Source: Dehalococcoidia bacterium (lineage in GTDB: Bacteria; Chloroflexota; Dehalococcoidia; UBA2979). From it: a stretch of DNA of 64,000 nucleotides. The stretch covers positions 1,920,001-1,984,000 of the forward strand of contig OZ253555.1 of NCBI GenBank assembly GCA_965262725.1, read 5' to 3'. The notes beneath the pieces are model-generated. The model saw only the letters and a program-made list of their open reading frames with translations. It was not told the origin of the DNA and made no database searches. Below, one piece after another: positions 1,191 through 43,899 of the stretch. Position numbers and translations under genes: made by a program. Position 1 is the stretch's first letter. The number at the start of each line of letters is the position of its first letter.

Positions 1191-1574
1191 CGAATGGGGT
1201 GCGCCAGGCTAACTGGTGCTTGGGCAGGAGGTGCAAGTCCTCTACGGCGAAGGAGCAAGCCACTCCACGCGGTTCCGCGAGCCGTGCGCGACTCGTCGCG
1301 AGGCGAGCCGTGAAGCGTCGGCAGCGGGGTAGGCGGGCGGAGCTATTGAGCATCGAAAGATGCATAATCCGGAGTGCCGAGGCTTTCCCATTGGTCGAAG
1401 GCAACACCGGCAACGGCGCTTCTGGCGAGCCGTCGTCGGGCTCTGCGGTGTCAAAGAACTCACGCACGTCTGCACGTCCAGCACCGGGACCTCATATGGA
1501 TGCCTCGGTTGTCAAGCCCCGTCCAGCGGTACTTGAACGTCCGGTCTGCTGCGGCGGCGGTCGCGCGAGGATGA

Positions 1575-1798
1575 CGACTCCGGGGTGGCGAAGGAGGGAT
1601 GAGCGGGAATTGTTCGACGTCTTGTCACTCTCATATTCGCGGGTTGCCAGTGGCAGAGCCGCATGACCCTTCTTCGTCAGGAGCAGGCGCATTCTGATAT
1701 CGCGGGTTGGCGACGCGAAGCGTCGTTGCCGCATGGTTCCGTCGCGCAGTCTCCGAAACGTAGTCCCGCTTATCCGTCCTTCACCGCCCCCGGAGTCG
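1575..1798 (-). ncRNA. Predicted bridge RNA unit 2 of IS110-A copy 1
   Basis: Same sequence as 38292-38515. Confidence 0.7.
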
Positions 1799-1952
1799 AG
1801 GTCCCCGCCCTCCGCGGCCAGCTCCGCTGCATGCTCCTCACTCGCGGCGATGCCTGAGAGCCCCTGCTCCGTCGGGCGGATGTGCTCATCCGTCATCTCG
1901 ACCCTCTGCAGGTAGCTGCCGAAGGCCGCCTGGGCGCCCTTCTCCTGGAAGA

Positions 1953-2176
1953 CGACTCCGGGGTGGCGAAGGAGGGATGAGCGGGAATCACTCGACGTTG
2001 TGTCACTCTTATAGTCGCGGGTTGCCAGTGGCAGAGCCGCATGACCTTTCTTCGTCGGGAGGGGGCGCCGTCTGGGAACGCGGGTTGGCGACGCTTCGCG
2101 TCGTTGCCGCATGGTCCCGTCGCGCGATCTCCAGAATGTGGTCCCGTTCATCCGTCCTTCACCGCCCCCGGAGTCG
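1953..2176 (-). ncRNA. Predicted bridge RNA unit 1 of IS110-A copy 1 (donor-guide variant)
   Basis: Matches 37791-38014 except position 2010, where the right donor guide TATGAG becomes TATAAG. Confidence 0.7.
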
Positions 2177-2242
2177 ACGTCTCCGCCCTCCGCGGCCGGT
2201 CTGTCCTCCTCTCCGTCCGCTCGCTGTTCGTGGCCAGCCGGC

Positions 2243-3355
2243 TCAGGCGGCCTGCTGCCGCTCTTCAGCGTGGGTGCGCAGCACCGCCCAGATGGCGGCG
2301 AGCAGCTCCCGCGCCACGGCCACGACGGCGACCTGCGACGGCTTGCCTCGCTCCTTGAGATGCCGGTAGCGCCGGGACATCCGGGAACCGGTCTTGTCGG
2401 CCATCGCGACCGCCCAGCCCGGCTGGCCCTGCCGCCGTCTGCGCAGCGGCGCCCCGACGCGGTACGGGCGGATGCTGTGCCAGCCCGCCTCGACCAGCAC
2501 GCGCCGGACGTGCTCGTTCCCCGTCTTGGTGATGCCGCCGCGCCGCGTCCTCGGGCCTGAGCTGTGCTCGCTCGCCACCAGCCCCACGTACGCTGCCAGC
2601 TGGTCGGGGCTTCCGAATCGCGTGATATCGCCGAGCTCGCCCAGGATCGTCATGGCGGTGACCGTGTCGATGCCGCGGAAGCAGCGGAGGAGTCCCGCCT
2701 CCGGCGCATACTCCTCACTCGCGACGATGTCTGAGAGCCTCTGCTCCATCAGGCGGATGTGTTCATCCGCCATCTCCACGCGCTGCAGGTAGCCGTCGAA
2801 TGCCGCCTGGTCGCCCAGCTCCTCGAAGGAGAGCGAGCGCAGCCAGCACCGGTGCTCTCGGGTCCACGTAGACTTACCATAATGGTGGCCCGAGCGCAGC
2901 AGGAACCCCGACAGTTGCACCTGGGCCGTCTTGCGGGCCGCAACGGCGTCCTCGCGCCCACGGGTGAGGTTGCGCACAGATTCCTGCCGCTCAGTCGGCT
3001 GGTGCACCTCGGTGAGCAGTCCCGCGCGCAAGAGATGCGCCAGGTTCCGCGCGTCGCGGCGGTCCGTCTTGACGCGGTCTCCCGGCTTTGTGGGGATCAG
3101 CGCCGGCGCGATGACGCGGCAGTCGATCCCCTTCGCATCGAGAGTGCGCTTCAGCCCGAACCCGGTCGGGCCCGCCTCGTAGCAACAGACCACGGAATCC
3201 CCGGCCTCGCGGCGCAGTCGCCGCGCCAGCGCCGCCACGGACGTCGGCTCGTTGGCGAGCTGCCACTCTTCGGGCTTCTTCTCCCCGTGCAGAACGGAGA
3301 CGTTGATCGTCCGCGCGTGCACGTCGAGGCCCACGTATAGCTTCGTCTGGTCCAT
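2243..3355 (-). CDS. IS110-family DEDD recombinase/transposase (370 aa)
   Basis: YVGLDVH, CCYEAG and KTDRRDA DEDD motifs; C-terminal SEHSSG and GGITKTGN. Confidence 0.95.
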   Translation of the reverse strand: MDQTKLYVGLDVHARTINVSVLHGEKKPEEWQLANEPTSVAALARRLRREAGDSVVCCYEAGPTGFGLKRTLDAKGIDCRVIAPALIPTKPGDRVKTDRRDARNLAHLLRAGLLTEVHQPTERQESVRNLTRGREDAVAARKTAQVQLSGFLLRSGHHYGKSTWTREHRCWLRSLSFEELGDQAAFDGYLQRVEMADEHIRLMEQRLSDIVASEEYAPEAGLLRCFRGIDTVTAMTILGELGDITRFGSPDQLAAYVGLVASEHSSGPRTRRGGITKTGNEHVRRVLVEAGWHSIRPYRVGAPLRRRRQGQPGWAVAMADKTGSRMSRRYRHLKERGKPSQVAVVAVARELLAAIWAVLRTHAEERQQAA

Positions 3356-3916
3356 CTGGTCTGCCCCCTACCCCTTCCATGTTCCGGTCCGGTTCCGCTC
3401 CGATGTTGCACTCGGAACAGAAACCGACACCGGTTCTCAAGGTGTCGAGGCATCCATAGGGTCTGGGAGGGCTCGGCCTTGTCCCTGCGTGTTGCCACGC
3501 CGGGACCGCAACGGAAAGGGCGATTCCGTAATCCGTTGACGCACGAGGTCGAGCAATCAGATCCGGCCATAGTAGTGATGAGGGCGGCGAACAAAGAGGA
3601 GTAGACACCCTCGGCGGAGTCGACGGAGCGAAGGGCCGGACCGGAGGGGAAGCTGGCGAAGCCCGGCACTGGCGGGACACTGCGCCCGCGTTTGGTGTCA
3701 CTCGGGCCACCCGGCTACGGCACCTCTTGGGTGCCGTCTGACCTGACGGAGGAGCCGTATGCGTTAACGCGCACGTACGGATCTGTCCGGGGGGCGGCCG
3801 GCAACGGCCGTCCCTACCGGAATTGCTCCCTGTGGCTGTGACGTGATTCGTTCAAAAACCATTGTCCCAGCTACAGCGGAGCACCCAACCGCAGACGCTC
3901 GCGCACTCTTCTTCGG

Positions 3917-5833
3917 TTCGCGGTAGGGATGCCGGTTGCCCGGCACCCCCCGCACAGATCCGGACGTGCCCTCTCGGGCATCCGGCTCCTACCTCAAGTG
4001 CGTGACGGCAAATCGCTCCGCAGGCCACGGGTGAAGGATGGAGATTCGGGGCCAGTGTTTCTGGCACAGGGCAAGGATGCGCTCCCACGTGAAACGGTCG
4101 CGCTGCGACCGCCGTCGGAGAACGCGCAGCCAGAGCCGCTTCACGAAACGAACAAACCGCGTGAGCGCCGGCGAGCTGGTCGGCACCGCGTAGTAGCCAA
4201 GCCACCCACGCAGTACCCGCCCCAGCCACTGCCCCGTCGTCACGGGGTTGTCGTGCATGCGCCGCCACAACTCGGCCTTGATGACCTTCAGCGTCCGGCG
4301 CATCCGCTTCGCAACGGGCTTGCGCCCCAGCCCGAATCTCCCGTCGCGTCGGGTCCGGCAGTAGTGCGTCATGCCGAGAAAGTCGAACGTTTCCGGTCGG
4401 CCCTCCCCGCGCTTCCGCCTGTTCGCCAGCGCGAACCTGCCGAACTCAAGTAGACGGGTCTTCTCCGGGTGCAGCTCCAGCCCGTAGGCCGCGAACCGCT
4501 CCCGGAGTGCCTCCATGAACCGCACCGCATCGCTGCGGTGCTGGAAACCCAGGACGAAGTCATCGGCATACCGCACGATGTACGCCTCGCCCCGGACCTC
4601 CCGCGGTCGCCACTCGCGCGCAAACCAGTCGTCGAGCACGTTGTGCAGGTACACGTTCGCAAGCAGCGGCGATATCGGCGCCCCCTGCGGCATCCCCCGC
4701 ACGAAATCGACTTCCGGCTCCGCGTCCATGACGCCGACGCTCAGCCACTTTCGTATCAGGCGCAACACCCGCTGGTCCCCGATGCGCATCTCCAGAAACG
4801 ACATCAGCCGCCCCCGGTCGATGCTGCCGAAGAACTCCCGGATGTCCACCTCGACAATCCAGCTGACCTTGCGCCGTTCGACCGCGTAGGCCAGTGCGTC
4901 CAGCGCGTCATGCGCCGAACGCCCCGGCCTGAAGCCATGCGAGAAGCCGTAGTAGCCCGACTCGTAAATCGGGTTCAAAAGATTGTCCACCACCGCCCGC
5001 TGAACGATCTTGTCCTCCAGCGAGACGATACCGAGCGGCCGTATTCCCCCGTCCGGCTTGGGTATCTCTACCCGCCTGACGGGCTTCGCCCGGTACGCTC
5101 CACGGTGTACGCGGCCATGCAGGTCGAGCAATCGCTCGTCCAGCCCGTCCCCGTATTCTCGCCACCTCACCCCGTCCACGCCCGGAGCCGCATCCCGCTT
5201 CAACGCGAGATACGCCTCCCGCAGCGCCTCCGGCGTGATGTGGTGCAAGAGCGCGGTGAGTTTCTCTCCCGGCTTCCGTTCCACGAACTGCCGTATCCTC
5301 TCCGCTCCGGGTGACACCGCACCCCGACTCTGCGTCCGGACCGTGCCGGTGCTTTGAGGATTCCTCTCGGTTGGGGCCCTTTGCTCCAGCGACTCCGCCG
5401 GGGCTCGCGCCCCCTTGTTCGCCGCCTTCATCGCTCGTACGGCCCCATCAGACTGCTGCGCATCGTTCATCATCGGCTACGGTTTACGTCCCTTCCCGAC
5501 GCGGTCCCGGCGTACGACTCGTCGGGACAACGCGCAGCTCTCCCAAGTCCCGGCGATAGACGTGTGTGCGTGCATGGGGTCTTCGACACCGTGGGGCCCG
5601 ACCACGACTCGCCAGTAGCGCCGTCGCCGGTATTGCCTTCGACCAATCCAAGAGCCTCGGCACCCCAAATGGCCCTTTCGATGCTCATTAGCCCCGCCCG
5701 CACACCCCGCTGCCGACGCTTCACAAGCCGCCTCGCGACGACCCGCGCACGGCTCGCGGAATGACATGAGTGGCTAGCTCTTTGCCATAGAGGACTTCCA
5801 CCTCCTGCCTACTCGCCAGTTAGCCTGGCGCTC
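3917..5833 (-). mobile_element. RT-encoding group IIB class E-like intron B, inserted in the IS1380 left terminal repeat
   Basis: 5' GAGCGCCAGGCTAACTGG; D5 GAGCCGGATGCCC...GGGCACGTCCGGATCT; D6 bulged A at -8, ends AA. EBS1 TGGATT pairs with IBS1 GATCCA; EBS2 AGGGC pairs with IBS2 GCCCT. Confidence 0.9.
3989..5473 (-). CDS. ltrA: Group II intron reverse transcriptase/maturase, no endonuclease domain; true start may lie downstream
   Basis: APGVDG, IPKPDGGIRPLGI, GMPQGAPISPLLANVYLH, RYADD and FDFLG motifs, followed by the X domain. Confidence 0.95.
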   Translation of the reverse strand: MMNDAQQSDGAVRAMKAANKGARAPAESLEQRAPTERNPQSTGTVRTQSRGAVSPGAERIRQFVERKPGEKLTALLHHITPEALREAYLALKRDAAPGVDGVRWREYGDGLDERLLDLHGRVHRGAYRAKPVRRVEIPKPDGGIRPLGIVSLEDKIVQRAVVDNLLNPIYESGYYGFSHGFRPGRSAHDALDALAYAVERRKVSWIVEVDIREFFGSIDRGRLMSFLEMRIGDQRVLRLIRKWLSVGVMDAEPEVDFVRGMPQGAPISPLLANVYLHNVLDDWFAREWRPREVRGEAYIVRYADDFVLGFQHRSDAVRFMEALRERFAAYGLELHPEKTRLLEFGRFALANRRKRGEGRPETFDFLGMTHYCRTRRDGRFGLGRKPVAKRMRRTLKVIKAELWRRMHDNPVTTGQWLGRVLRGWLGYYAVPTSSPALTRFVRFVKRLWLRVLRRRSQRDRFTWERILALCQKHWPRISILHPWPAERFAVTHLR

Positions 5834-29793: not shown

Positions 29794-30180
29794 GAGCGCC
29801 AGGCTAACTGGCGAGTAGGCAGGAGGTGGAAGTCCTCTATGGCAAAGAGCTAGCCACTCATGTCATTCCGCGAGCCGTGCGCGGGTCGTCGCGAGGCGGC
29901 TTGTGAAGCGTCGGCAGCGGGGTGTGCGGGCGGGGCTAATGAGCATCGAAAGGGCCATTTGGGGTGCCGAGGCTCTTGGATTGGTCGAAGGCAATACCGG
30001 CGACGGCGCTACTGGCGAGTCGTGGTCGGGCCCCACGGTGTCGAAGACCCCATGCACGCACACACGTCTATCGCCGGGACTTGGGAGAGCTGCGCGTTGT
30101 CCCGACGAGTCGTACGCCGGGACCGCGTCGGGAAGGGACGTAAACCGTAGCCGATGATGCACGATGCGCAGCAGTCTGAT
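29794..30180 (+). pseudogene. 5' fragment (D1-D2) of intron B behind an orphan IS1380 left end (29783-29793)
   Basis: Near-identical to 5833-5447; cut off at J2/3 by the right end of IS1380 copy 2. Confidence 0.85.
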
Positions 30181-31728: not shown

Positions 31729-32030
31729 CGAATGGGGTGCGCCAGGCTAACTGGTGCTTGGGCAGGAGGTGCAAGTCCTCTACGGCGAAGGAGCAAGCCA
31801 CTCCACGCGGTTCCGCGAGCCGTGCGCGACTCGTCGCGAGGCGAGCCGTGAAGCGTCGGCAGCGGGGTAGGCGGGCGGAGCTATTGAGCATCGAAAGATG
31901 CATAATCCGGAGTGCCGAGGCTTTCCCATTGGTCGAAGGCAACACCGGCGACGGCGCTTCTGGCGAGCCGTCGTCGGGCTCTGCGGTGTCAAAGAACTCA
32001 CGCACGTCTGCACGTCCAGCACCGGGACCT

Positions 32031-34123
32031 CATATGGATGCCTCGGTTGTCAAGCCCCGTCCAGCGGTACTTGAACGTCCGGTCTGCTGCGGCGGCGGTC
32101 GCGCGAGGATGACGACTCCGGGGTGGCGAAGGAGGGATGAGCGGGAATTGTTCGACGTCTTGTCACTCTCATATTCGCGGGTTGCCAGTGGCAGAGCCGC
32201 ATGACCCTTCTTCGTCAGGAGCAGGCGCATTCTGATATCGCGGGTTGGCGACGCGAAGCGTCGTTGCCGCATGGTTCCGTCGCGCAGTCTCCGAAACGTA
32301 GTCCCGCTTATCCGTCCTTCACCGCCCCCGGAGTCGAGGTCCCCGCCCTCCGCGGCCAGCTCCGCTGCATGCTCCTCACTCGCGGCGATGCCTGAGAGCC
32401 CCTGCTCCGTCGGGCGGATGTGCTCATCCGTCATCTCGACCCTCTGCAGGTAGCTGCCGAAGGCCGCCTGGGCGCCCTTCTCCTGGAAGGAGAGGAAGCG
32501 CGGACAGCGCCGGCGCTCGTGCGCCCAGCAGGACTTCCCATAATGGTGCCGCGCGAGCAGCGAGCACCCCGCCGACGGCTGCTGCGCCGTCTTGCGCGGC
32601 CGCGCGAAGATGACGACTCCGGGGTGGCGAAGGAGGGATGAGCGGGAATCACTCGACGTTGTGTCACTCTCATAGTCGCGGGTTGCCAGTGGCAGAGCCG
32701 CATGACCTTTCTTCGTCGGGAGGGGGCGCCGTCTGGGAACGCGGGTTGGCGACGCTTCGCGTCGTTGCCGCATGGTCCCGTCGCGCGATCTCCAGAATGT
32801 GGTCCCGTTCATCCGTCCTTCACCGCCCCCGGAGTCGACGTCTCCGCCCTCCGCGGCCGGTCTGTCCTCCTCTCCGTCCGCTCCCTGTTCGTGGCCAGCC
32901 GGCTCAGGCGGCCTGCTGCCGCTCTTCAGCGTGGGTGCGCAGCACCGCCCAGATGGCGGCGAGCAGCTCCCGCGCCACGGCCACGACGGCGACCTGCGAC
33001 GGCTTGCCTCGCTCCTTGAGATGCCGGTAGCGCCGGGACATCCGGGAACCGGTCTTGTCGGCCATCGCGACCGCCCAGCCCGGCTGGCCCTCCCGCCGTC
33101 TGCGCAGCGGCGCCCCGACGCGGTACGGGCGGATGCTGTGCCAGCCCGCCTCGACCAGCACGCGCCGGACGTGCTCGTTCCCCGTCTTGGTGATGCCGCC
33201 GCGCCGCGTCCTCGGGCCTGAGCTGTGCTCGCTCGCCACCAGCCCCACGTACGCTGCCAGCTGGTCGGGGCTTCCGAATCGCGTGATATCGCCGAGCTCG
33301 CCCAGGATCGTCATGGCGGTGACCGTGTCGATGCCGCGGAAGCAGCGGAGGAGTCCCGCCTCCGGCGCATACTCCTCACTCGCGACGATGTCTGAGAGCC
33401 TCTGCTCCATCAGGCGGATGTGTTCATCCGCCATCTCCACGCGCTGCAGGTAGCCGTCGAATGCCGCCTGGTCGCCCAGCTCCTCGAAGGAGAGCGAGCG
33501 CAGCCAGCACCGGTGCTCTCGGGTCCACGTAGACTTACCATAATGGTGGCCCGAGCGCAGCAGGAACCCCGACAGTTGCATCTGGGCCGTCTTGCGGGCC
33601 GCAACGGCGTCCTCGCGCCCACGGGTGAGGTTGCGCACAGATTCCTGCCGCTCAGTCGGCTGGTGCACCTCGGTGAGCAGTCCCGCGCGCAAGAGATGCG
33701 CCAGGTTCCGCGCGTCGCGGCGGTCCGTCTTGACGCGGTCTCCCGGCTTTGTGGGGATCAGCGCCGGCGCGATGACGCGGCAGTCGATCCCCTTCGCATC
33801 GAGAGTGCGCTTCAGCCCGAACCCGGTCGGGCCCGCCTCGTAGCAACAGACCACGGAATCCCCGGCCTCGCGGCGCAGTCGCCGCGCCAGCGCCGCCACG
33901 GACTTCGGCTCGTTGGCGAGCTGCCACTCTTCGGGCTTCTTCTCCCCGTGCAGAACGGAGACGTTGATCGTCCGCGCGTGCACGTCGAGGCCCACGTATA
34001 GCTTCGTCTGGTCCATCTGGTCTGCCCCCTACCCCTTCCATGTTCCGGTCCGGTTCCGCTCCGATGTTGCACTCGGAACAGAAACCGACACCGGTTCTCA
34101 AGGTGTCGAGGCATCCATAGGGT
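32031..34123 (-). mobile_element. IS110-A copy 2 (2093 bp); bridge RNA units at 32614-32837 and 32113-32336
   Basis: Same sub-terminal IRs; CT cores at 32029-32030 and 34124-34125. Confidence 0.9.
32904..34016 (-). CDS. IS110-family recombinase
   Basis: Identical protein to 36612..37724; 3 aa differ from copy 1. Confidence 0.95.
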   Translation of the reverse strand: MDQTKLYVGLDVHARTINVSVLHGEKKPEEWQLANEPKSVAALARRLRREAGDSVVCCYEAGPTGFGLKRTLDAKGIDCRVIAPALIPTKPGDRVKTDRRDARNLAHLLRAGLLTEVHQPTERQESVRNLTRGREDAVAARKTAQMQLSGFLLRSGHHYGKSTWTREHRCWLRSLSFEELGDQAAFDGYLQRVEMADEHIRLMEQRLSDIVASEEYAPEAGLLRCFRGIDTVTAMTILGELGDITRFGSPDQLAAYVGLVASEHSSGPRTRRGGITKTGNEHVRRVLVEAGWHSIRPYRVGAPLRRRREGQPGWAVAMADKTGSRMSRRYRHLKERGKPSQVAVVAVARELLAAIWAVLRTHAEERQQAA

Positions 34124-34904
34124 CTGGGAGGGCTCGGCCTTGTCCCTGCGTGTTGCCACGCCGGGACCGCAACGGAAAGGGCGATTCCGTAATCCGTTGA
34201 CGCACGAGGTCGAGCAATCAGATCCGGCCATAGTAGTGATGAGGGCGGCGAACAAAGAGGAGTAGACACCCTCGGCGGAGTCGACGGAGCGAAGGGCCGG
34301 ACCGGAGGGGAAGCTGGCGAAGCCCGGCACTGGCGGGACACTGCGCCCGCGTTTGGTGTCACTCGGGCTACCCGGCTACGGCACCTCTTGGGTGCCGTCT
34401 GACCTGACGGAGGAGCCGTATGCGTTAACGCGCACGTACGGATCTGTCCGGGGGGCGGCCGGCAACGGCCGTCCCTACCGGAATTGCTCCCTGTGGCTGT
34501 GACGTGATTCGTTGAAAAACCATTGTCCCAGCTACAGCGGAGCACCCAACACCAGCCGCTCGCGCACTCTTCGTTCGGTTTCCGGTAGGGACGCCGGTTA
34601 CCCGGCGCCCCCCGGACAGATCCGTACGTGCGCGCTAGCGCATACGGCTCCTCTCCCGGGTATGACGGTCGGGGCTGAAACGCACCCTGCCGTATCGGCT
34701 CGGACTTCTTGTGCCACAGGTCACCCGGCTCAGTGTCCGGCCCATGTCGAGTCCTCGCAGATTCCCCGCGAGTCCGGCCCTTGGCTCCTCCGACTCCGCA
34801 GAGGCTCGCGCCCCCTTCTATGAGGGTCGTCTGATCCGCAAGGCCGACGTGGCGGCCTTCTGCGCCGTTCTACCGATCGCGCCTCCCGTCCGCAGCCCTG
34901 TGGT

Positions 34905-35105
34905 GGTTGTCGGTGCCGATGCGAGTGGTGCCGCCGTCTTGTCCCCGGGACGTTGTGGTGACCGTGCTTCTATTCGCACTCGTCGAGGGGCCGCTCCGGG
35001 CCCGGTGCATGATGATCAGCCTGTCTCCAGGGTGTGGGCGCTGCCATCTTGTTCCCGTCCTCGTTGGGACCAGGGGGTTCCGCAGTCGCCCGCGTGTCGG
35101 CATCT
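34905..35105 (-). ncRNA. Predicted bridge RNA of IS110-B (ends approximate)
   Basis: Target guides CCCCCT (35072-35077) and GAACAAG (35048-35054) match site CCCC-CT-TGTTC. Donor guides TCATC (35011-35015) and ATAGAAG (34967-34973) match circle junction TCAT-CT-TCTAT. Confidence 0.8.
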
Positions 35106-35163
35106 CTCGTATCCTCCGAAGCCCACCGGCCGCCCGGTCGCCTCGCTCCTCGCGTGCTGTCTG

Positions 35164-36255
35164 CTACGCCGCCTCGGCCGCGCGCGCGTGGCGCAACGGC
35201 TCGTAGACCTCCCCGCTCTTCCAGAGCGCAAGCATCAGCACCGCCAGTCGCCTCGCGACCGCGACGACGGCACGCTTCTTCGCATTGCCGGCCCCCGACT
35301 CCGCGTAACGCAGCCCCCACCTGCGGAGGTCGCTGTCGGGGCCGAAGGGGCCCAGGATGTAGTGCGCGGCCTGGTTCAGCACCCGGCGCAGCGCCACGTC
35401 CCCTTCCTTCGTGATCCGCAGCTGGGGCTGCCGATCACCGGAATCGCGGCTCCGGGGCACCAGCCCCAGGTAGGGCCCCACCTCCCTGTTCTTGGGGAAG
35501 CGGGCCGGGTCCTCGATGGTGAGGATGAAGGTGAGCGAGGTGATCGGGCCGACGCCCACGATCTGCCGCAGCGCGCCGGTCTCCGCGTAGCGCTCGCACA
35601 TCGCGGCGAACTTCTTGTCGGCCTGGCGGATCTCCCCGGTCAGCTGCTCGATCTGGTGGAGCACCGGCAGCAGCGCCGGGCCCAGCTCCTCGGGGATGTG
35701 CTCTCTGACCGCGCGGTGGAAGGCCGGCGCCGTGCAGCCCGGAAGCGCCGCGCCCCACGCCTTCACCGCGCCCCGGACGTGGTTGATGAACATCGTGCGC
35801 GCCCGGACCAGCGCCTCGCGGCTGCGGAGCACCTGGAGGTCCGCCTGCGCCATGGCGCTTCGGTGCCGGATGGGGAAGAGGAGCGCCGGGTCGAATCGGC
35901 CGAGCCGTGCGAGGTGCTCGGCATCGGAGCGGTCGGTCTTGCGCTGGCTGCGCGCGATCAGCCTGACCTGCCTCGGGTTGGCGACGATCACGTCGTGACC
36001 GAGCTCCGCGAACATCCGGCTCAGCCACGGGGACCGCGGCCCCACCTCCATCACCACCCGGGCGCCCTGCAGTGGGGTGAGCGCCCGCGTGAGCGCCGCG
36101 GTCGTGGTGCGGACTCGCTCCTCCCGCACGATCTCCCCGTCGCCACCGAGGACGCAGAGGTGGCTGTAGCGGTCGCTGACGTCGATGCCGACAGTCACGA
36201 GCTCCGCATCCCCCACCTTCCTGCTCTCTGTGACATCTGATGTACGCTGTGCCAC
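35164..36255 (-). CDS. IS110-family recombinase B (GTG start after AGGAG)
   Basis: TVGIDVS, VVMEVG, KTDRSDA, LVPRSRDSG and ITKEGD motifs. Confidence 0.92.
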   Translation of the reverse strand: MAQRTSDVTESRKVGDAELVTVGIDVSDRYSHLCVLGGDGEIVREERVRTTTAALTRALTPLQGARVVMEVGPRSPWLSRMFAELGHDVIVANPRQVRLIARSQRKTDRSDAEHLARLGRFDPALLFPIRHRSAMAQADLQVLRSREALVRARTMFINHVRGAVKAWGAALPGCTAPAFHRAVREHIPEELGPALLPVLHQIEQLTGEIRQADKKFAAMCERYAETGALRQIVGVGPITSLTFILTIEDPARFPKNREVGPYLGLVPRSRDSGDRQPQLRITKEGDVALRRVLNQAAHYILGPFGPDSDLRRWGLRYAESGAGNAKKRAVVAVARRLAVLMLALWKSGEVYEPLRHARAAEAA

Positions 36256-36611
36256 GGTCGGTCTCCTACCTCTCTCGGCTCGCCTGAGCCGTTCTCCTGG
36301 GCCACCACGTGAGCCCGTGCTTGGAGGGGAAGTATCCCCTCTGAGGAGGGGACCGACCCTCATGTCATCTTGTTCGCCGGTCTCACAGCTACTATGGCCG
36401 AATCAGATTGCTTCACGGCGTACATCAGCGGCGTACGGCTTCTACCTTCCCGCTGCGGCCCCCCCGACAGGAACTGTCACAGGGGCACCGTGGAGCCCTC
36501 CCAGACCCTATGGATGCCTCGACACCTTGAGAACCGGTGTCGGTTTCTGTTCCGAGTGCAACATCGGAGCGGAACCGGACCGGAACATGGAAGGGGTAGG
36601 GGGCAGACCAG

Positions 36612-37724
36612 ATGGACCAGACGAAGCTATACGTGGGCCTCGACGTGCACGCGCGGACGATCAACGTCTCCGTTCTGCACGGGGAGAAGAAGCCCGAAGA
36701 GTGGCAGCTCGCCAACGAGCCGAAGTCCGTGGCGGCGCTGGCGCGGCGACTGCGCCGCGAGGCCGGGGATTCCGTGGTCTGTTGCTACGAGGCGGGCCCG
36801 ACCGGGTTCGGGCTGAAGCGCACTCTCGATGCGAAGGGGATCGACTGCCGCGTCATCGCGCCGGCGCTGATCCCCACAAAGCCGGGAGACCGCGTCAAGA
36901 CGGACCGCCGCGACGCGCGGAACCTGGCGCATCTCTTGCGCGCGGGACTGCTCACCGAGGTGCACCAGCCGACTGAGCGGCAGGAATCTGTGCGCAACCT
37001 CACCCGTGGGCGCGAGGACGCCGTTGCGGCCCGCAAGACGGCCCAGATGCAACTGTCGGGGTTCCTGCTGCGCTCGGGCCACCATTATGGTAAGTCTACG
37101 TGGACCCGAGAGCACCGGTGCTGGCTGCGCTCGCTCTCCTTCGAGGAGCTGGGCGACCAGGCGGCATTCGACGGCTACCTGCAGCGCGTGGAGATGGCGG
37201 ATGAACACATCCGCCTGATGGAGCAGAGGCTCTCAGACATCGTCGCGAGTGAGGAGTATGCGCCGGAGGCGGGACTCCTCCGCTGCTTCCGCGGCATCGA
37301 CACGGTCACCGCCATGACGATCCTGGGCGAGCTCGGCGATATCACGCGATTCGGAAGCCCCGACCAGCTGGCAGCGTACGTGGGGCTGGTGGCGAGCGAG
37401 CACAGCTCAGGCCCGAGGACGCGGCGCGGCGGCATCACCAAGACGGGGAACGAGCACGTCCGGCGCGTGCTGGTCGAGGCGGGCTGGCACAGCATCCGCC
37501 CGTACCGCGTCGGGGCGCCGCTGCGCAGACGGCGGGAGGGCCAGCCGGGCTGGGCGGTCGCGATGGCCGACAAGACCGGTTCCCGGATGTCCCGGCGCTA
37601 CCGGCATCTCAAGGAGCGAGGCAAGCCGTCGCAGGTCGCCGTCGTGGCCGTGGCGCGGGAGCTGCTCGCCGCCATCTGGGCGGTGCTGCGCACCCACGCT
37701 GAAGAGCGGCAGCAGGCCGCCTGA
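36612..37724 (+). CDS. IS110-family recombinase
   Basis: Same DEDD and SEHSSG motifs as copies 1 and 2. Confidence 0.95.
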   Translation: MDQTKLYVGLDVHARTINVSVLHGEKKPEEWQLANEPKSVAALARRLRREAGDSVVCCYEAGPTGFGLKRTLDAKGIDCRVIAPALIPTKPGDRVKTDRRDARNLAHLLRAGLLTEVHQPTERQESVRNLTRGREDAVAARKTAQMQLSGFLLRSGHHYGKSTWTREHRCWLRSLSFEELGDQAAFDGYLQRVEMADEHIRLMEQRLSDIVASEEYAPEAGLLRCFRGIDTVTAMTILGELGDITRFGSPDQLAAYVGLVASEHSSGPRTRRGGITKTGNEHVRRVLVEAGWHSIRPYRVGAPLRRRREGQPGWAVAMADKTGSRMSRRYRHLKERGKPSQVAVVAVARELLAAIWAVLRTHAEERQQAA

Positions 37725-37790
37725 GCCGGCTGGCCACGAACAGGGAGCGGACGGAGAGGAGGACAGACCGGCCGCGGAGGGCGGAGACGT

Positions 37791-38014
37791 CGACTCCGGG
37801 GGCGGTGAAGGACGGATGAACGGGACCACATTCTGGAGATCGCGCGACGGGACCATGCGGCAACGACGCGAAGCGTCGCCAACCCGCGTTCCCAGACGGC
37901 GCCCCCTCCCGACGAAGAAAGGTCATGCGGCTCTGCCACTGGCAACCCGCGACTATGAGAGTGACACAACGTCGAGTGATTCCCGCTCATCCCTCCTTCG
38001 CCACCCCGGAGTCG
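37791..38014 (+). ncRNA. Predicted bridge RNA unit 1 (target GGGAC-CT-GGGAR)
   Basis: Long closing stem CGACTCCGGGG...CCCCGGAGTCG. Target guides GGGACC (37849-37854) and TTCCCAG (37889-37895); donor guides GGTC (37921-37924) and TATGAG (37954-37959). Confidence 0.85.
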
Positions 38015-38029
38015 TCATCTTCGCGCGGC

Positions 38030-38275
38030 CGCGCAAGACGGCGCAGCAGCCGTCGGCGGGGTGCTCGCTGCTCGCGCGGCACCATTATGGGAAGTCCTGC
38101 TGGGCGCACGAGCGCCGGCGCTGTCCGCGCTTCCTCTCCTTCCAGGAGAAGGGCGCCCAGGCGGCCTTCGGCAGCTACCTGCAGAGGGTCGAGATGACGG
38201 ATGAGCACATCCGCCCGACGGAGCAGGGGCTCTCAGGCATCGCCGCGAGTGAGGAGCATGCAGCGGAGCTGGCCG
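38030..38275 (+). pseudogene. Degenerate internal fragment of an IS110-A-like recombinase gene between the two bridge RNAs
   Basis: RKTAQ...HHYGKS...AAFGSYLQRVEMTDEHIR resembles RKTAQ...HHYGKS...AAFDGYLQRVEMADEHIR in the intact gene. Confidence 0.8.
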
Positions 38276-38291
38276 CGGAGGGCGGGGACCT

Positions 38292-38515
38292 CGACTCCGG
38301 GGGCGGTGAAGGACGGATAAGCGGGACTACGTTTCGGAGACTGCGCGACGGAACCATGCGGCAACGACGCTTCGCGTCGCCAACCCGCGATATCAGAATG
38401 CGCCTGCTCCTGACGAAGAAGGGTCATGCGGCTCTGCCACTGGCAACCCGCGAATATGAGAGTGACAAGACGTCGAACAATTCCCGCTCATCCCTCCTTC
38501 GCCACCCCGGAGTCG
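38292..38515 (+). ncRNA. Predicted bridge RNA unit 2 (target GGAAC-CT-GATAT)
   Basis: Same scaffold 501 nt downstream. Target guides GGAACC (38350-38355) and ATATCAG (38390-38396); donor guides GGGTC (38421-38425) and ATATGAG (38454-38460). Confidence 0.8.
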
Positions 38516-38899
38516 TCATCCTCGCGCGACCGCCGCCGCAGCAGACCGGACGTTCAAGTACCGCTGGACGGGGCTTGACAACCGAGGCATCCATATGAGG
38601 TCCCGGCGATAGACGTGTGCGCGTGCATGGGGTTCTTCGACACCGTGGGGCCCGACCACGACTCGCCAATAGCGCCGTCGCCGGTATTGCCTTCGACCAA
38701 TCCAAAAGCCTCGACACCCCAAATGGCCCTTTCGATGCTCATTAGCCCCGCCCGCACACCCCGCTGCCGACGCTTCACAAGCCGCCTCGCGACGACCCGC
38801 GCACGGCTCGCGGAATGACATGAGTGGCTAACTCTTTGCCATAGAGGACTTCCACCTCCTGCCTACTCGCCAGTTAGCCTGGCGCTCTGGATCAGGGCT

Positions 38900-43037: not shown

Positions 43038-43899
43038 GTGCGTCCGGAAGTCGAAGGGGTGGTGACGTGATGACGTGACCGGTCCGGAGACATGCTCGTT
43101 GCTGCCAGCCGGTGAGAGTCCGGCACGGGTAACTGTCAGGAGGCCCGTTAGCAGGTCGGCGGCGTGGACGGGAAACGGTCTGCGTCGAAGCCCGACGTCA
43201 AGAGCCCTATGAGGGGGAGCAAACGTGCGGTCCGCAGCATGACGCGAAGTCTGCCGCGCCGTGAGACTCGCCTGTCTATTGACAGGACCAAGGAGGAGCC
43301 GAGCCCGGGTGGTCAGGGCGAAGGCCATGGACGAGGTGAAGATCCTGGAATGCAGCCTCAAGAAACCTCCCGGCGTATGGGACGTGGAACGTACGGAAGG
43401 TAGCGACGGGAACCGGAGAAGCCCTCCCCGGCCCGGCACCCTGTGAGAGGGCGTCGGAGCGAGGCGTCCTATAACCGGTCAGAGCCGGGAAGTGGACAGC
43501 CAGCCGGAAGGGTGGCGGAGGGGGTCGTAGTACCGCTGGAGCCGGACGGACAACATAACCGCCGGTGATGGGAAGGACCCCTACTTTGTCCGTGCATGTT
43601 GCTGGGGGTGTGGACTGGTGAGTGCCCCTCGGGGCTAGCAACCACTTGGTAGGGTTCGAGGCTCTCCGCACATGCTGTACCGGCTGGCCAAGGCACGACC
43701 CACGTTGTGGGGAGCGCTGCATGCCATCTGGTGAAGGGCATCGGTGAGCCGGATGAGGGAGAACCTCACGTCCGGTTCGATGTGGCAGGGGCTGGAGACG
43801 GACGCTGCTATGGCCGTGGAGTTGGGCACCACCGGGAAACCGGCTTGGAACTGATGCGCCACCGCCTACGGCTCGCACCGCGCCAGCCCCTGACCCTAC
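43038..43899 (+). mobile_element. ORF-less group II intron D (different class, 862 nt)
   Basis: 5' GTGCG; D5 GAGCCGGATGAGGGAGAACCTCACGTCCGGTTC; ends CCCTGACCCTAC. EBS1 GTGGTCA pairs with TGACTGC; EBS2 AGACTC pairs with GAGTCT. D4 keeps only an RT relic (LRHMLYRLAKA). Confidence 0.88.

Follow-up and report, generated by a model that had tools for sequence, protein, structure and literature searches.

The window analysed here is a 64,000-nucleotide stretch of the genome of a Dehalococcoidia bacterium (GenBank assembly GCA_965262725.1, contig OZ253555.1, positions 1,920,001 to 1,984,000 of the forward strand), and coordinates given without a further label are positions within it. At 36505..38597 on the plus strand, the window carries a 2093-bp insertion sequence (IS) of the IS1111 type, copy A, which encodes a DEDD bridge recombinase and, 3' of that gene, two tandem bridge RNA units instead of the single unit found in its relatives. 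A reading made from the letters of the window (the sequence-only reading) had taken this element for a working guide array with one donor and two different targets. Both units appear to be kept by selection as folded RNA, and all insertion sites examined fit the first unit only.

Anatomy of the element and its two bridge RNAs

The bounds of copy A are the exact span of its 100% identity with copy B (32031..34123, minus strand, two units), outside of which the flanks diverge. Copy C (1493..3462, minus strand) also has two units and differs by 5 substitutions and a 123-nt deletion in a gene-fragment scar that lies between the units. The element is bracketed by a core dinucleotide AG, which is CT on the guide-sense strand, at 36503..36504 on the left and 38598..38599 on the right (both plus strand). 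This AG alone is common to both junctions, stands as a single AG in empty-site contigs of two public runs (X1 and X6), and flanks four of four copies in the genome of this window (G000) as well as 8 complete copies in a congeneric genome (G180), without further target duplication. A 13-bp inverted repeat sits 4 and 2 nt inside the tips; its left half, TATGGATGCCTCG (36509..36521, plus strand), is the reverse complement of its right half, CGAGGCATCCATA (38583..38595, plus strand).

The recombinase gene (36612..37724, plus strand, 370 aa) leaves non-coding ends of 107 nt on the left and 873 nt on the right, and its reading frame is open in eight of the eight copies listed, including the fourth copy of the genome, copy D. 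The product matches Pfam domains PF01548 (DEDD_Tnp_IS110, 1.5e-17) and PF02371 (Transposase_20, 3.7e-21) and has distant but significant PDB matches to ISCro4 (3.5e-9) and IS621 (7.1e-8). In alignment with ISCro4, the motifs GLDV (GxDV), EA, KTDrrDA (KTDxxDA), and SSG (SG) are all present, and these are the catalytic residues, including the C-terminal serine domain scheme, described in PMC11208158 (this paper and those cited below by accession or preprint number were available in part, and what is said of them extends to those parts). With DEDD RuvC-like and Tnp domains, a two-loop RNA matching flanks and ends, and a dinucleotide core, the element belongs to the IS110 family. Its end lengths, RNA position, and inverted repeat place it in the IS1111 subgroup, whose marks are a short left end, a long right end that contains the RNA, and inverted repeats of 7-17 bp in subterminal position (PMC11208160).

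Exactly 17 nt ahead of the right core is a TTGACA box (38575..38580, plus strand), found at the same distance in three related single-unit elements (L014, L026, and L021) and hence in all four family members. This box is a candidate -35 element of a promoter assembled at the circle junction. No -10 consensus was found across the abutted junction after TTGACA, and a scan of the linear element for consensus promoters and terminators gave 0 sites, a result of little weight at 70% G+C.

Unit 1 (37791..38014) and unit 2 (38292..38515), both 224 nt and on the plus strand, start 501 nt apart and share 88.2% BLAST identity over 263 nt. Each folds into a long closing stem enclosing two internal loops, each of which is divided by a hairpin, with folding energies of -118.4 kcal/mol for unit 1 (z = -6.07) and -110 kcal/mol for unit 2 (z = -5.99); 0 of 200 shuffles were as stable for either. 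A covariance model, R1, which was built from the two units and is specific to this family, scores each at 275 bits and finds one homologous unit 3' of the recombinase gene in related elements. In an alignment of 14 sequences, 91.4% of cells are paired, compared to 32-46% with the partners slid, and compensatory changes occur in 38 of the 72 model pairs, compared to 21.3 in shuffles (0 of 500 shuffles reach 38); as the alignment was fitted to R1, these pairing and covariation figures are somewhat flattered. A search of Rfam returned no family for the bridge RNA. Matches to the model are confined to the element (in G000, 8 of 8 sense-strand matches; in G180, 18 of 18 full-length ones), with no full-length solo unit in either genome. 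A lone 59-nt match outside any copy (G180:C2:167682-167740) corresponds to the donor-loop part of the unit (R1 positions 129-187).

Re-reading the letters directly confirmed the element bounds, the unit coordinates, the spacing, and the sequences on which the sequence-only reading was built, and the Pfam and PDB matches, the folds, and R1 bear out its call of an IS110-family bridge recombinase with two complete RNA units. The folding of both units and the covariance model that it had proposed as checks likewise came out in its favor.

In the target loop, the left arm reverse-complements the core and the right flank, and the right arm repeats the left flank and the core; in the donor loop, the left arm reverse-complements the core and the element start, and the right arm repeats the element end and the core. 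These rules also hold where ends and targets differ, in relatives L014 and L026 and, on the right side, in L021. The arms covary with ends and flanks in these three relatives, which upholds the earlier guide-arm assignments. The target arms of unit 1 are GGGACC (37849-54) and TTCCCAG (37889-95) and its donor arms AAGGTC (37919-24) and CTATGAG (37953-59), while unit 2 has GGAACC (38350-55) and ATATCAG (38390-96) in its first (target) loop and AGGGTC (38420-25) and ATATGAG (38454-60) in its donor loop. Within the target hairpin, the 3-nt loop is GAA in unit 1 (37870-37872) and TTC in unit 2 (38371-38373), inside a perfect palindromic stem; this reverse complement is the pattern that a hairpin template switch would give.

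Both donor loops had been reported to match the element's own ends. That is exactly so for unit 2 (6/6 and 7/7), whereas unit 1 is imperfect and variable, with 5/6 and 6/7 in copies A, B, and D and 6/6 and 5/7 in G180. Among the single-unit relatives, L014 and L026 match with their donor arms at 6/6 and 7/7, and L021 matches with its right arm at 7/7 (right side only). All three cross-lineage substitution events in unit 1 hit donor arms, one at 37920 and two at 37957, where three lineages carry G, A, and C. Three bases in three close lineages were seen at two positions, namely 37957, which is adjacent to the core in the right donor arm of unit 1, and 37536, a first codon position of the recombinase gene.

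Origin and maintenance of the second unit

The 277-nt spacer between the units contains a feature that had been missed, a scar at 38025..38268 (plus strand) that is a decayed copy of recombinase codons 37026-37268 (79% identity). It differs from the working gene at 54 of 243 positions (22%), spread over the three codon positions as 19/19/16. The second repeat is made up of this mid-gene fragment and a unit, with 502 nt (37269 to 37769) absent, and the homology after unit 1 ends at 38032 with no element end sequence beyond. Given the homology of the scar to recombinase codons, the unit pair is, judging from the sequence, the product of an old internal tandem duplication of ~1 kb, running from mid-recombinase to just past the RNA, followed by a 502-bp deletion between short similar words. 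The even spread over codon positions indicates that the scar drifted without protein constraint for most of its divergence, and drift to 22% means that the duplication would be old and recent capture from a working sister element unlikely, as the even spread itself also argues. A sister element as the source of unit 2 was also sought directly, and no other element with a GGAACC/ATATCAG target loop was found with R1 in G000, 150 class genomes, the genomes of 5 relatives, or the metagenome loci.

Four copies of the element are present in G000 (A, B, and C in the window, and D) and nine in G180, eight of which are identical over 1973 bp in eight unrelated contexts. Four public runs, each from a different study, also have contigs with the two-unit arrangement, and two of them additionally have an empty site; in all, element sequence occurs in 20 public runs of 10 studies, in contigs of DNA or unrecorded type. 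Because identical two-unit copies sit in different contexts, the element is evidently active as a two-unit whole. Every relative examined has a single unit per element (9 units in genomes G350, G251, and G270, and likewise the more distant metagenome relatives), so that the further arrays anticipated in related elements did not appear in this small sample, searched with a model specific to this RNA family. The same R1 search found no bridge RNA unit in 150 other genomes of the class.

Some copies show secondary changes. In copy D (G000:C1:2020976-2025008), unit 2 is split by a 4-kb nested insertion in which a 1.35-kb repeat is joined with a 2.6-kb element. Copies of the 2.6-kb element number at least 15, with 96-100% identity, and one of its frames may resemble an IS21-type helper protein. 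In G180 (L006 and L007), one copy has an intron-like right flank and an unrelated left flank, and another shows the converse, which suggests a rearrangement between two element copies.

The two units have diverged less than the scar and in a structured way. They differ at 30 of 236 positions compared to 54 of 243 in the scar (p = 0.008), and the differences fall on 4 of 141 paired positions, 6 of 26 guide-arm positions, and 20 of 69 other unpaired positions. Paired positions are thus depleted relative to unpaired ones (4/141 versus 26/95, Fisher p = 3e-8) and relative to the scar (p = 3.6e-8), and none of the four paired changes breaks a pair. The depletion remains when only the interior is considered, where stems and loops are interleaved (paired 2/73 versus unpaired 23/82, p = 1.3e-5), and conversion of the identical outer stems as a block is therefore no explanation for the pattern. 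Unit 1 forms 70 and unit 2 71 of the 72 model pairs, and 78/84 and 77/84, respectively, of the columns conserved in at least seven of eight relatives are kept. The first-loop stems of unit 2 have 0 differences in 22 nt, while 4 of the 13 positions in the arms changed. Between the copies of the two host lineages, which differ by 1.7% where the neutral scar stands at 22%, the scar has 6 differences in 157 positions and the units have 4 in 448 (p = 0.023). The proximal scar was lost twice independently, by a 123-nt deletion (copy C and one metagenome run) and a 120-nt deletion (copy D and G180), and unit 2 is nevertheless present in every copy. From these patterns of change we conclude that both RNAs have in all likelihood been kept by purifying selection as folded RNA.

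This evidence bears directly on the view that unit 2 is a functionless passenger, carried along between the recombinase gene and an indispensable right end and resembling unit 1 through gene conversion or chance. A neutral unit 2 at 22% divergence would carry ~30 differences in its 141 paired positions, where four were observed, none of them pair-breaking. Conversion could account for outer stems that are identical in long blocks, yet it would not spare stems only, as the interleaved interior shows, and the scar also has a conversion partner and decayed all the same. The adjacent scar is plainly junk, as a passenger region might be, but two independent deletions took the scar and never unit 2. 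That copy D retains an open recombinase frame with a broken unit 2, and that no use of the unit 2 target loop was seen at the 12 right and 13 left flanks described below, would fit a relic, which on the whole we consider improbable.

Insertion sites and target use

All four copies in G000 are flanked as ccctcccAG / IS / AGgtcccgg. Across G000 and G180, 13 of 13 left flanks end in CCAG, and the 12 right flanks read GTCCC (10), GTCTC (1), and GTCCT (1), so that the unit 1 address, GGGAC / CT / GG on the guide-sense strand, fits every right and left flank. The site common to the three window copies had been assigned to the unit 1 loop, and that assignment extends to the fourth copy of the genome. 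For unit 2, the predicted site GGAAC-CT-GATAT is represented by 0 of 12 right flanks (GTTCC) and 0 of 13 left flanks (ATATCAG).

The proposal that the element is a natural two-guide array, with unit 1 directing it to GGGAC-CT-GGGAG sites and unit 2 to GGAAC-CT-GATAT sites, draws on a second unit that is intact, apparently selected, and equipped with a perfect donor loop, and on first-loop stems that stayed unchanged while their arms changed. The use of sites speaks otherwise. Maintenance of the units by selection is apparent, but each guide being used on its own target is not: the flanks of both genomes fit unit 1 only, the sequence at three more contig ends, from run X7, is GTCCCG, and an IS flanked by GGAAC-CT...CT-GATAT, which had been put forward as the thing to look for, was absent among the flanks examined in the two genomes. 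Free sites for the 9-mer GGAACCTGA exist (18 in G000 and 12 in G180; for GGGACCTGG, 40 and 31), and that they are unused is only moderate evidence against equal use of both addresses, as the events are few and use may be rare. Enrichment of the unit differences in guide positions, which the sequence-only reading had itself named as a test, was likewise lacking, as the divergence of the guide arms did not exceed that of the other unpaired positions (p = 0.62). We therefore regard a working array with one donor and two targets as unlikely.

The full 12-mer of the predicted unit 2 site, GGAACCTGATAT, was searched for as well. The statement that the window holds no such site stands for 0 or 1 mismatch; at up to 2 mismatches there are four matches, three of which are the element's own right junctions, GGGACCTCATAT, at 10/12, which had been overlooked. 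G180 has no 12-mer site at up to 1 mismatch. The only exact GGAACCTGATAT in G000 (G000:2411044, 12/12, where ~0.06 would be expected by a hand estimate from base composition) could be counted for an array, yet it is unoccupied, and we treat it as a weak lead. It lies in a 240-bp repeat with four copies (L001-L004, one at G000:C1:2410970-2411219), the other three of which match at 10-11/12, and the reading frames beside it are DUF2207 and cadherin-like, not mobile-element genes. The repeat adjoins remnants resembling the 3' part of transfer RNAs (ARAGORN and Rfam calls, weak) and is 91% conserved in another genus, in G251 (L036). A break of the repeat in G251 (L038) was considered as an insertion of this element family and rejected, as it ends 5 nt before the site and not at the core.

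In G000, the sites in use are intronic, with four of four copies in domain IV of a group II intron, upstream of the reverse-transcriptase frame. For copy A, the host is the intron whose domains 1-4 match at 38631..38852 on the minus strand (Rfam RF02005, 170 bits). An intact sister intron has its RVT_1 reading frame at 3989-5473 (minus strand), and two sister introns in the window have AA in place of the core AG and are empty. The sites in G180 are mostly not intronic.

Six matches to group II intron domains 1-4 lie within the 64 kb (1234-1460, 5577-5798, 29829-30050, 31772-31998, 38631-38852, and 43106-43242), with many more in the genome. The same intron that hosts copy A also carries, ~135 nt from the element's site, a second and unrelated IS110-family recombinase gene (35164-36363, minus strand, PF01548 and PF02371). 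This frame was considered as the reverse transcriptase of the intron, which its Pfam matches rejected. Its 1.8-kb repeat unit (34687-36462) has three more copies at 96% identity, also interrupting introns, so that two different IS110-family elements home to neighboring sites of one group II intron family. Elsewhere in the window, from 9661 to ~25000, is a tandem array in which a unit of 330/333 nt is repeated ~46-47 times, the copies being 60-100% identical to the reference copy; it probably encodes a giant repeat protein, as the unit length is a multiple of 3.

Possible roles of the two units and known systems

The reading that we favor, although we would give it slightly less than an even chance, is a division of labor in which unit 1 would read the target and unit 2 the element's ends. 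After the duplication, both RNA copies would have been kept by selection while their guide content was partitioned between them. Unit 1 would serve target recognition for insertion at GGGAC / CT / GG, unit 2 would recognize the donor ends, both during copy-out and on the donor side of the synapse, and both units would keep the fold that the protein needs. That both RNAs are produced and bound by the recombinase, and the role of each, we infer from sequence features. Such a division is possible because the loops of one synaptic complex can come from different RNA molecules. In IS621, separate target-loop and donor-loop molecules support recombination, with the two loops of one complex coming from two RNA molecules (PMC11208158), and recognition by the donor arms alone suffices for excision, via a proposed complex with two donor loops (bioRxiv 10.64898/2026.08.31.748434).

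Consistent with this division, the exact donor match is found in unit 2, and the lineage-specific substitutions in unit 1 fall in its donor arms. The right arm of the first loop of unit 2, ATATCAG, is identical to the right donor guide of relatives L026 and L021 and is also present in a related unit of two metagenome runs. Because of this identity, the first loop of unit 2 would read more like the element's own right end than like a new address. The best window matches of its predicted site, the element's own right junctions, point the same way.

Several observations weigh against the division of labor. All four loops are structurally intact, which is unexpected if the unit 1 donor loop and the unit 2 first loop are dispensable. 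The unit 1 donor arms match well enough to work alone, and nothing shows that unit 2 is needed. The left arm GGAACC of unit 2 has an A-C mismatch to the real flank GGGAC, which is awkward for a loop that reads the element's own junction. The three bases at 37957 need not mean relaxation, as a position in use could also be tuned in this way. Drift in the guide arms is possible, since they diverge no more than other unpaired positions, and part of the similarity between the units, above all in the identical outer stems, could come from gene conversion. Finally, the mechanism was published for IS621 and CazIS110, members of the IS110 group that are not IS1111-type.

A stronger form of the division of labor, in which the units are separate guides, with unit 1 for insertion and unit 2 a donor-end specialist that holds the right junction and both ends and so drives copy-out, is in our view doubtful. 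In this form, the element's own ends would be read by three of the four unit 2 arms (AGGGTC, ATATGAG, and ATATCAG), with the fourth a single base off the right flank. If true, the element would provide the first example in nature of an RNA-guided recombinase with one guide to "go out" and another to "go in". That unit 2 acts instead as a regulatory or competing RNA, a brake or decoy that ties up recombinase and donor ends in complexes unable to find a target or sends new copies to resident right junctions, seems quite improbable: a perfect donor loop combined with a first loop of no used target would suit it, as would the own right junctions being the best window matches of the predicted unit 2 site, yet there are no tandem dimers or junction-inserted copies among the 13 copies, and nothing observed speaks directly for it.

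Bridge recombinases are under development as programmable genome editors, and the element touches on the number of RNA molecules that build a synapse, on what keeps excision apart from insertion, and on the way in which half-matches cause off-target events. A diverged RNA pair that has been kept for a long time is a ready-made experiment showing which arms selection holds exact in each copy, and it offers a compact two-RNA design with which to test whether copy-out rises or insertion becomes cleaner. No natural element with tandem or dual bridge RNAs was found in the literature searched, including the available parts of PMC11208160, PMC11187229, PMC11208158, PMC13626964, and PMC13604230, whose supplementary tables may list an undiscussed case.

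The closest known systems are ISEc11 and ISPa11 of the IS1111 group (PMC11187229, PMC11208160), which share with this element a DEDD recombinase, a short left and a long right end, subterminal inverted repeats, and an RNA 3' of the gene whose two loops match flanks and ends around a dinucleotide core. Site-specific insertion into a repeated genomic element is likewise a trait of the IS1111 group. Unlike ISEc11 and ISPa11 as described there, the element reported here has two tandem RNA units with a gene-fragment scar between them, and its target is domain IV of a group II intron. IS621 and ISCro4 (8WT6, 9T56) have a homologous recombinase and the same logic of target and donor loops, although their sequence similarity is distant and their RNA is 5' of the gene, one per element. 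By analogy with IS621 (PMC11208158), a core-adjacent position would behave like a handshake guide.

An extra RNA-coding module 3' of the recombinase gene is also known from ISPpu9 of Pseudomonas putida, where the module ssr9 is independently mobile, can be found solo, and is dispensable for transposition (PMC12288879). The second unit here has no end boxes of its own and no full-length solo occurrence in G000 or G180 and, unlike ssr9, is a full paralogue of the guide RNA. In CazIS110-1, a truncated target-loop RNA cooperates with the full bridge RNA (bioRxiv 10.1101/2025.10.25.684509), and this, together with the half-match recombination of IS621, is the nearest parallel for several RNA species or molecules sharing one transposition cycle. 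In those systems, as far as these accounts describe them, the RNAs come from one gene, whereas here two diverged genes would supply them.

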